A DNA stretch of 8,700 nucleotides, from the UHGV virus genome UHGV-1440302; one strand, 5' to 3'. How positions within the stretch are numbered: position 1 is the first letter of the stretch; the number at the start of each line of letters is the position of its first letter. Below, one piece after another: positions 2,374 to 6,787 of this stretch. A program made the translations under genes and the position numbers. The stretch is from a virus. A model generated the notes under the pieces. That model did no database searches. It worked only from the letters and a program-made list of their open reading frames with translations, and was not told the DNA's origin.

Positions 2374-3606
<1,233 letters not shown>

Positions 3607-3662
3607 GTGCCGTCTGAGGTGGGATTATCAGGACGCGGCATCTCAATTTAGCTACTACAACG

Positions 3663-3760
3663 TCAGTGCGCATAATGTGACACGCGTTATGTTGAAAAGG
3701 CCGCTGCGATACTCTCCACCGCAGCGGCCTTTTTATACATAACGTCATTGTGCGCACTGA
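3663..3760 (+). other. Candidate XerCD-dependent attP: two inverted dif-like sites that can fold into a forked hairpin in the + ssDNA
   Basis: Site 1 (+): AGTGCGCATAA (3665-3675), 11-nt spacer TGTGACACGCG, TTATGTTGAAA (3687-3697); compare recalled E. coli dif GGTGCGCATAA-TGTATA-TTATGTTAAAT. Site 2 inverted (+ 3732-3758, read on - strand): AGTGCGCACAA-TGACG-TTATGTATAAA. Arms are mutually complementary (3665-3675 with 3748-3758, 10 of 11 pairs; 3687-3697 with 3732-3742, 9 of 11) with unequal unpaired centres, capped by a 10-bp GC stem. Confidence 0.7.
3695..3736. terminator. Bidirectional intrinsic-terminator-like hairpin (also the tip of the attP hairpin)
   Basis: Perfect 10-bp stem ggccgctgcg (3699-3708) / cgcagcggcc (3720-3729), 11-nt loop, AAAA on the 5' side and TTTTTA on the 3' side; lies about 90 bp after the gIV stop and downstream of the minus-strand gene cluster. 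Confidence 0.65.
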
Positions 3761-3763
3761 ACC

Positions 3764-3919
3764 TTAAAGGATTTCAGTGTCCTTACTTAGTTTGTTGTGT
3801 ATGGTCATCACCAACGGTGGGACAAGCGTTATCAGGCTGAATATTGTCATGCCTGTGATGCTGCCAACAACAAAATGCTTTATCAGCAGGTCAAGAATTA
3901 AGTCACTGGTTGTCTGCAT
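3764..3919 (-). CDS. Hypothetical small hydrophobic protein, 51 aa (MQTTSDLILDLLIKHFVVGSITGMTIFSLITLVPPLVMTIHNKLSKDTEIL)
   Basis: Hand-translated minus-strand ORF, below the ORF-track length cut-off; ATG at 3919-3917 immediately after repeat copy 1, stop TAA at 3766-3764; one predicted transmembrane-like segment; only a weak SD (GAAG). Confidence 0.25.
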   Translation of the reverse strand: MQTTSDLILDLLIKHFVVGSITGMTIFSLITLVPPLVMTIHNKLSKDTEIL

Positions 3920-3971
3920 ATTGCTTCTAGCAATCTTCGTATCGATAGGTAACTATAATGTTATTTTTTTG
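3918..3971. repeat. Direct repeat copy 1 (~53 bp) covering the stop codon and 3' flank of a minus-strand small ORF
   Basis: atattgcttctagcaatcttcgtatcgataggtaactataatgttatttttttg matches 4446-4502 with about 3 substitutions and 1 indel; contains palindrome TATCGATA and a TATAAT hexamer (+ strand). Confidence 0.85.
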
Positions 3972-4149
3972 TTGCATCCGTCTTTGCAAATTTCCTGTAG
4001 TCATCTTCTGTTATAGACTCCAGTCCTTTTGCGATTATCCATTCTAAAACTTTGGTATCTTTTACTGGTATTGCCAGTGTTGTTACCACTTTTACAGTTT
4101 CTTTCTCTACCTTTCTCCATAAAACATCGTTTATGTGCTTTGTTGGCAT
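3961..4149 (-). CDS. Small DNA-binding-like protein, divergent paralog of the two upstream ribbon-helix-helix-like ORFs (62 aa from ATG; 82 aa if GTG at 4209 is used)
   Basis: ATG at 4149-4147 preceded by GAGGT with 7-nt spacing; C-terminal segment VKDTKVLEWIIAKGL parallels LKPSEIVNHLIDNYL and VTWSEVVHFMIKNYL of the neighbours; ends KK-stop inside repeat copy 1. The alternative GTG start at 4209 overlaps the upstream ORF's stop by 4 nt. Confidence 0.5.
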   Translation of the reverse strand: MPTKHINDVLWRKVEKETVKVVTTLAIPVKDTKVLEWIIAKGLESITEDDYRKFAKTDATKK

Positions 4150-4205: not shown

Positions 4206-4418
4206 TCACATTGCTCTTTTTTTCTTAAGTTCTTCTCTGCTTATTAAATCTTTCACGGCCTCATCTAAGTAATTGTCTATTAAGTGATTAACTATTTCAG
4301 ATGGTTTTAGTATCTCACCGGTCTTATTGCCGATTTCTAGCACTCTTCGTTTTAGCTCCAATTTTCTGTCTTCGTTGATTCTTACAGTTGTGTCTCCGCG
4401 CTTTGTTTCTTTTTTCAT
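4206..4418 (-). CDS. Ribbon-helix-helix (CopG/Arc/MetJ-like) small DNA-binding protein, putative repressor, 70 aa
   Basis: ATG at 4418-4416 preceded by GAGGT with 8-nt spacing. TTVRINEDRKLELKRRVLEIGNKTGEILKPSEIVNHLIDNYL has the strand-helix-helix pattern of CopG/Mnt-type RHH proteins (compare recalled CopG ...LTITLSESVLENLEKMAREMGLSKSAMISVALENY). About 50% identical to ORF 4490-4672 over the helix region. Confidence 0.6.
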   Translation of the reverse strand: MKKETKRGDTTVRINEDRKLELKRRVLEIGNKTGEILKPSEIVNHLIDNYLDEAVKDLISREELKKKRAM

Positions 4419-4445
4419 CACAGTTTACCTCTATGTCCTGTCAAT

Positions 4446-4502
4446 ATATTGCTTCTTAGGAATCTTCGTATCGATAGGTAACTACTATGTTATTTTTTTT
4501 GG
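4446..4502. repeat. Direct repeat copy 2 (~53 bp) covering the stop codon and 3' flank of a minus-strand small ORF
   Basis: atattgcttcttaggaatcttcgtatcgataggtaactactatgttattttttttgg; see copy 1. The ORF 4490-4672 ends KK-stop at the equivalent position within the repeat. Confidence 0.85.
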
Positions 4503-4672
4503 TTTCTTTGGTGGATCATGTCTTGTTTTGCGTCGTTTAAGTAGTTTTTTATCATAAAGTGTACAACTTCCGACCATGTAACTATTTGCCCTGTTTTTTG
4601 GCTTATCTCAAGGGCTATCCTAGTAATATCCAGATATGTTGATTCTGTAATTGCTATTGCCTTTCTTTTCAT
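4490..4672 (-). CDS. Ribbon-helix-helix-like small DNA-binding protein, candidate phage repressor divergently transcribed from the Rep gene, 60 aa
   Basis: ATG at 4672-4670 preceded by GGAG with 8-nt spacing. IAITESTYLDITRIALEISQKTGQIVTWSEVVHFMIKNYL is paralogous to ORF 4206-4418 (shared KTG...SE.V...I.NYL...A..D). Its upstream region is the palindrome-rich divergent region shared with the Rep gene, an arrangement like rstR/rstA in CTXphi. Confidence 0.6.
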   Translation of the reverse strand: MKRKAIAITESTYLDITRIALEISQKTGQIVTWSEVVHFMIKNYLNDAKQDMIHQRNQKK

Positions 4673-4684
4673 TCGCTCATCTCC

Positions 4685-6787
<2,103 letters not shown>

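Follow-up and report, generated by a model that had tools for sequence, protein, structure and literature searches.

A candidate accessory membrane-protein gene beside the attP hairpin of Escherichia coli filamentous prophages

Organization of the pIV-rep Interval

The window (the whole 8,700-nt stretch of viral DNA analyzed here) is one unit of an Escherichia coli filamentous (inovirus) prophage and is 99% identical to a tandem prophage of strain E100341. Its plus strand carries small ORFs and a major-coat-like gene, a gene-VI-like ORF, Zot/pI (1010-2221), the secretin pIV (2383-3606) and a 673-aa replication endonuclease, rep (4766-6787). Two small ORFs between a 141-aa gene and the major coat gene occupy the gene VII/IX position. 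The interval between pIV and rep contains a long hairpin and four minus-strand ORFs, the last of which encodes the 51-aa product considered here.

The hairpin (3663-3760; inverted repeat I2) consists of two dif-like arms in inverted orientation, and single-stranded DNA from 3655 to 3770 folds at -40.8 kcal/mol (z = -10.8). It is presumably an attP of the CTX-phi style, formed by a folded single strand. In relatives hipA of E. coli lies directly past the hairpin, which is the chromosomal dif neighborhood. At one such site (L009, 4380-9355) a second, unrelated inovirus, with a pIV only 45% identical, follows straight after the attP of the first, an instance of heterologous tandem lysogeny at dif. 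Nested within attP is a GC-rich 14-bp stem (3695-3733; inverted repeat I3) flanked by U/T runs on both strands, whose RNA fold reaches -46 kcal/mol (z = -6.8). This inner stem is a candidate bidirectional terminator for the gene IV transcript and for the leftward transcript; the simple terminator scan missed it because its 11-nt loop is too long.

About 900 E. coli records match the segment 3688-3757, which comprises the inner GC hairpin and the 3′ dif-like arm, with 81-87% identity. The matches include 484 plasmid places, for example near position 15,644 of many plasmids of 120-190 kb, which may represent a Xer-type site or an inovirus remnant.

The leftward string begins with a 60-aa ORF (4490-4672, minus strand), which matches phrog_2503 (E = 6e-27) and is 42% identical to its neighbor, an annotated 70-aa regulator-like gene of the same family (4206-4418, minus strand). 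PGAP makes no call for the 60-aa ORF in L001, a genome nearly identical to the window, and it is probably a second missed gene. A 62-aa gene assigned to phrog_5219 (3961-4149, minus strand; annotated in L001) follows, and the 51-aa ORF closes the string. The first-pass annotation described these neighbors as RHH-like, a label that finds no backing in a Pfam match or a PDB fold match, and the model of the 70-aa protein is a low-confidence two-helix structure. The small ORF is co-oriented with the small regulator-like genes: it is the last of the leftward string and is followed by the GC-rich hairpin. Co-transcription with the upstream genes, as the first-pass annotation proposed, is inferred from this gene layout.

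Where the leftward genes and rep diverge (4686-4762; repeats D1 and I1), the DNA contains operator-like TGTTAAC...TTTAACA repeats, which are likely operators of a switch region; the leftward promoter is presumed to lie here as well, and promoter scans found no convincing promoter. The motif TGTTAAC(N)TTTAACA is present there in three close copies, direct and inverted, and a fourth, weaker copy lies at 4080-4096.

Upstream of the ATG of the small ORF lies an intercistronic spacer on the minus strand (repeat copy 1, 3920-3970, with the repeat reaching 3911; families D4, 3911-3928, and D2, 3928-3970). It contains the palindromes TATCGATA and ATTGCT-N3/4-AGCAAT, abutting the ATG, and offers no usable Shine-Dalgarno (SD) sequence; the palindromes may serve as a binding site or form a hairpin in the RNA. 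A second spacer copy (4439-4499, minus strand) is followed by the 70-aa gene, not by the small ORF. The order is thus the 60-aa gene and a spacer, then the 70-aa and 62-aa genes and a spacer. Relatives have a single regulator module with the small ORF directly after it. The window phage appears to be a hybrid with two regulator modules in series, and the acquisition of the extra module accounts for the second spacer copy.

The 51-aa ORF and Its Signals

The small ORF extends over 3764-3919 of the minus strand, with the ATG at 3917-3919 and the TAA at 3764-3766, and its coordinates, strand and 51-aa translation in the program-made ORF listing are identical to those of the first-pass annotation. 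The start had been placed at the edge of repeat copy 1. Contact with the repeat is confirmed, but the ATG actually lies inside the extended repeat, which reaches 3911. The stop had been placed 6 nt from attP, whereas the measured gap to the outer arm (3746-3760) is 3 nt.

The weak SD reported for the window copy is real, its best anti-SD duplex being -1.0 kcal/mol, and values near zero are also found in the tested copies of groups B, D and E (defined below). Two other contexts of the window's own allele are moderate (-5.4 to -5.9 kcal/mol), and the two C-allele contexts tested have a strong, exposed SD (-8.5 and -8.3 kcal/mol). The length of the ORF by itself is not beyond chance: the window contains 40 ORFs of at least 51 aa, and the 1.16-kb gene IV-rep region yields 2.5 ± 1.4 of them when shuffled.

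Small membrane proteins are routinely missed by annotation. The allele group of the window is present in 12 complete E. coli genomes, and RefSeq/PGAP calls the window's allele in none of them. In this respect the description of the ORF as unannotated is correct, but the exact 51-aa protein is recorded as “hypothetical protein” in GenBank/JGI on 55 contigs. PGAP calls neither the A nor the B alleles; RefSeq does list the 57-aa allele, for example as WP_001409659.1.

A Family of attP-Adjacent Small Genes

Profile searches, both word-indexed and exhaustive, were combined with exact look-ups and with scans of contigs from viruses and metagenomes. Together they gathered 30 copies in genomic DNA, with 19 distinct DNA sequences among them, and 35 distinct proteins. 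All protein variants are full length, the 43-aa entry P0033 being a shorter start call. Five allele groups can be told apart: A, the group of the window (51 aa), B, E, D (46 aa) and C (57 aa). Length differences amount to whole codons, D having three fewer after Met1 and C six extra ones at its C-terminus. BLASTP aligns the A and C alleles over 42 residues at 33% identity (E = 5e-9). The profile searches, one of them covering 1.84 billion representatives, brought back this family and nothing else (profile E 6e-24 to 1e-8), and the window protein shares its ILDLLxK motif, Gly23 and Pro35.

All 30 copies start with ATG, and in the 28 copies with downstream DNA the stop lies 3-12 nt before the same attP hairpin; the window ORF, too, is the last leftward ORF, ending within this distance of a dif-like attP arm. 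Small co-oriented phrog_2503 genes precede the ORF wherever upstream DNA was available and examined, and the immediately upstream sequence varies. Groups A, B and E share the spacer of about 50 nt ahead of the ORF, and across the allele groups at least five different contexts are found 5′ of the ATG; between contexts, homology starts exactly at the ATG.

The copies derive from dif-integrating inoviruses of E. coli that belong to at least three lineages. Three kinds of backbone carry the family, distinguished by the rep endonuclease, an RstA-like replication protein or other structural modules, and the same allele is found alongside different structural modules. In an inovirus whose replication protein is RstA-like, the 57-aa CDS WP_001409659.1 occupies the same place at the same hairpin. 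Of 5426 complete E. coli genomes, A or B is present in 12 and C in 22, and some strains contain up to 10 copies of the small ORF. In the collections searched the family is confined to E. coli. A tblastn search of a phage-isolate collection returned no small-protein relatives, and scans of the GTDB species-representative genomes by peptide pattern and by attP arm gave no matches.

Two records that might have passed for counter-examples were discounted. In L019, a 9.6-kb plasmid record, the ATG is replaced by ATA and the ORF is partly scrambled, but genes are fragmented throughout the record; in L039 the copy is 5′-truncated at the contig end.

Conjugative plasmids (L018, NZ_CP078136.1 89863-90036; CP099215.1; CP099211.1) carry an intact 57-aa allele with the attP hairpin among IS elements; this allele has five conservative substitutions, and no phage structural genes are annotated in the 6.1-kb stretch examined. 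GC-rich, repeat-like intergenic elements surround attP and lie upstream of the C and D alleles (L003, 3440-4030 and 4310-4600; L015, 240-480), and some of them are duplicated blocks, each about 130 nt long, that look like the stretch preceding attP.

Selection and Coding Strand

The suggestion that the ORF may be non-coding is opposed by the retention of frame, start and stop in five diverged allele groups on different backbones. Frame-disrupting indels were sought in otherwise intact relatives and none was found. Constraint is evident between the deep groups as well: for A-D1, changes have reached saturation at synonymous sites (pS 0.90) and have not done so at non-synonymous sites (pN 0.33; p = 3e-8). 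The ILDLL motif is written in different codons in each group, including switches between CTN and TTR leucine codons, and its residues are kept. Between A and D, protein identity is 47-48% at about 54% DNA identity, which excludes purely non-coding conservation. Within groups pN/pS is 0.4-0.74 and mostly not significant, and changes at the three codon positions number 17, 20 and 27 (third-position excess, p = 0.29); the protein therefore evolves quickly outside the motif.

These ratios show that the region is coding and do not tell on which strand. A plus-strand ORF of 79 aa (3777-4016) overlaps the gene with coincident wobble positions and thus gives equal ratios; dN/dS cannot choose between frames so arranged, a caveat that concerns the method as such. 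The plus frame is open in all allele groups, its amino acid identity is 0.41 against 0.42 for the minus frame, and its pN/pS is similar. Together with the weak SD of the window copy, the silence of PGAP and the frequency of ORFs of this size by chance, this could mean that the plus-strand ORF is the coding one, or that the attP-adjacent DNA or RNA has a function of its own to which the open frames are incidental.

Such a reading is highly improbable in view of how the two frames differ. BLOSUM62 sums over four groups are 586 for the minus frame and 401 for the plus frame, and the minus frame scores higher in all six cross-group pairs; in control windows of 45 codons from pIV and Zot this score ranks the true frame best in 26 of 26. 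Columns that keep Leu or Arg through first-position codon switches number six on the minus strand and two on the plus strand. The start of the plus-strand ORF is not conserved, being GTG, ATG or a position inside attP depending on the allele, and the ORF runs 16-208 nt into unrelated flanks and so acquires unrelated tails, whereas the boundaries of the minus-strand ORF coincide with the edges of the conserved block. The plus-strand ORF, which was judged not to be a gene, would also need transcription through the attP hairpin, and the protein identity between A and D speaks against a purely non-coding role. A codon-usage log-likelihood does not discriminate at 46-57 codons. The boundaries, substitution scores, sextet columns, SDs of other alleles, operon orientation with its hairpin, and membrane-like product all favor the minus strand, and on these comparisons of sequence the ORF is, with high confidence, a real protein-coding gene of that strand.

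Predicted Product

The first-pass annotation noted one transmembrane-like segment and read the product as a small membrane protein, and both points agree with the present analysis. Kyte-Doolittle hydropathy averaged over 19 residues peaks at 1.85 for residues 16-34, inside an uncharged stretch from 15 to 42, AlphaFold models a single helix over residues 2-50 (mean pLDDT 85.6), and the frame that encodes it is kept across the five groups. The family shows a single hydrophobic core of 16-28 uncharged residues, preceded by a short acidic N-terminal segment with ILDLLxK and followed by a variable, usually basic C-terminal tail. The N-terminal flank has a net charge of -1 or -2, and the C-terminal flank ranges from 0 in allele A to +9 in allele C, whose tail contains nine Lys/Arg. 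Residues I8, L9, K14, G23 and P35 are invariant and D10, L11 and L12 nearly so; the acidic N-terminal motif is better conserved than either the helix or the tail.

Hydropathy, flanking charges and structure prediction thus point with good confidence to a single-pass membrane protein, presumably of the inner membrane. The positive-inside rule predicts an N-out (periplasm)/C-in topology, weakly so for allele A with its uncharged C-terminal flank. By analogy with the Pf3 coat protein, the N-terminal tail is probably inserted without a signal peptide.

An Accessory Gene in a Variable Slot

A complete related inovirus (L051) has the same attP arm and lacks the small ORF, and the gene is therefore dispensable. 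Other dif inoviruses fill this slot with a Doc-family toxin, an STM4504-family protein or, in UTI89, a 369-aa protein, and a DUF2726 gene is found in the slot upstream of the C allele. The presence of such unrelated cargo indicates that the small ORF is likewise accessory cargo and not core machinery. The DUF2726 protein (L012, 4277-4843; also in hits H12 and H17) has 188 aa and an N-terminal hydrophobic segment and is encoded directly upstream of the 57-aa allele, with which it may form a two-gene cargo unit.

The ORF is very probably an accessory gene of E. coli filamentous prophages. Gene order further suggests, with somewhat better than even confidence, that it would be expressed together with the regulators.

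Possible Function

Known families offer little guidance. The small protein has no match in Pfam, PHROG or PADLOC, the PADLOC models gave none with nine family members, a PDB sequence search returned nothing useful, Rfam gave nothing credible, and a literature search with the small-protein accessions found no mention. The gene is nevertheless regarded as real and fast-evolving; it is partly missed by RefSeq, yet present in databases under the name “hypothetical protein,” and the family is undescribed. All observations considered, an accessory membrane-protein gene of E. coli dif-integrating filamentous prophages is the best explanation, and a reasonably probable one.

In the mechanism proposed, the leftward string would run from the operator-rich region near rep to the GC-rich hairpin nested in attP, with the small gene as its last cistron, on the strand opposite the structural genes. 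The prophage would in this way make a single-pass inner-membrane protein of 46-57 aa, which could interfere with the entry of further filamentous phages, for example at a TolQRA or pilus step. The block would be functionally analogous to PfsE of the Pseudomonas Pf phages. The protein matches no family, and its closest functional parallel is PfsE; the leading guess is therefore superinfection exclusion or entry block, though a tentative one. Exclusion could not be absolute, since strains carry up to 10 copies and different inoviruses in tandem. A more speculative extension, to which only a slim chance is given, is that the family represents a new class of inovirus factors that block entry or interfere with Tol or pili, with the diversity of its alleles reflecting an arms race of co-resident filamentous phages over the single dif site, or else that the attP linkage reflects a tie to the membrane-associated Xer/FtsK machinery.

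An unlikely, though not far-fetched, alternative to entry block is a membrane toxin resembling those of type I systems, which would depolarize or permeabilize the inner membrane and serve prophage addiction or abortive infection, its translation being kept low by the absent SD and by antisense read-through from the plus-strand operon. Its size and architecture, a hydrophobic helix with a charged tail, agree with this, as do the very weak SD of the window's own A copy and of the copies tested from groups B, D and E, and the convergent orientation toward the gene IV operon; however, the SD of the C allele is strong and exposed, a simple scan found no conserved antisense sigma-70-like promoter over the ORF, Rfam families are absent there, and conservation peaks in the acidic N-terminal motif instead of the helix or tail. 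The 57-aa allele has a weak NCBIfam match to the Fst family (16.7 bits, E = 0.0048), but this score is under the curated cut-off of 26 bits, spans only 19 hydrophobic residues and has no counterpart in the A, B, D and E alleles. Membership in that family (NF033608) was accordingly rejected, with 13.8-16.7 bits for the C allele only. The Doc toxin in the same slot of another dif inovirus and the intact copy kept on conjugative plasmids amid IS elements are in keeping with a toxin, and the lack of a PADLOC match is not.

Even less probable is a morphogenesis or virion-associated helper, coat-like or pVII/pIX-like, acting at the inner membrane. Leaderless inovirus coat proteins and their kin (Pf3 coat, Ff pVII/pIX) have an acidic N-terminus, a hydrophobic helix and a basic C-terminal tail, which the small protein recalls, most of all in the C allele with its nine Lys/Arg, and the tight linkage to the hairpin after gene IV suits such a role. 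Yet the tail of allele A is not basic, the strand is opposite to that of all structural genes, the VII/IX position is already filled by two small ORFs, and one allele occurs with different structural modules. The gene VII/IX or leaderless-coat class is defined by a plus-strand position, between gene VIII and the gene for the ssDNA-binding protein, and by presence in every complete genome, and it was rejected for a minus-strand ORF that is missing from the complete related inovirus L051.

Enterotoxigenic and other pathogenic E. coli commonly carry filamentous prophages at dif, which can alter host physiology, and we know of no superinfection-exclusion or membrane-toxicity factor of this kind described for coliphage-type inoviruses. 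Being conserved, phage-specific, accessory and attP-linked, the family is a cheap and well-defined candidate for superinfection-exclusion or membrane-toxicity tests.

Comparison with Known Systems

The closest entries are members of the family itself. The “hypothetical protein” WP_001409659.1 (57 aa) and GenBank entries such as EZK12665.1, EHV63830.1 and EHU27886.1 (“putative membrane protein”) share the hairpin-adjacent position and orientation and match with a BLASTP E of 5e-9 and a profile E of about 1e-24. They are only 27-33% identical to the window allele and differ from it by a longer, strongly basic tail, a strong SD and a phage with another replication protein.

The type I toxins of the Fst/Ldr kind (NF033608) are similar in combining a small hydrophobic helix with a charged tail on a mobile element. 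They differ in that the match is below the family cut-off and that a simple promoter scan and Rfam gave no antisense RNA for the small ORF; to our knowledge, the acidic N-terminal motif is not an Fst feature.

PfsE is encoded among the plus-strand Pf genes. It is a very small membrane protein made by a filamentous prophage and, for the role proposed here, the only precedent that has been well studied. PfsE (PA0721) of Pseudomonas Pf4 is a 30-aa inner-membrane superinfection-exclusion protein that binds PilC, a pilus platform protein, contains a conserved YxWGW aromatic motif and is reported to have its N-terminus in (PMC8764522). By contrast, none of the 35 variants of the present family contains YxWGW, their length is 46-57 aa, and their N-terminus is predicted to be out. 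The comparison is one of analogy, not homology.

The position itself has parallels in other phages. The end ORFs of Ypf-phi and CUS-1 and the h3-h5 ORFs of UP-phi are reverse-oriented, lie next to a dif-like site and vary between phages (PMC4266046, PMC7307601). Their slot in CUS-1 of UTI89 holds the 369-aa protein, not a small membrane protein. By description, these ORFs and the small gene of the window are alike in orientation, in adjacency to dif and in the variability of the slot that they occupy.
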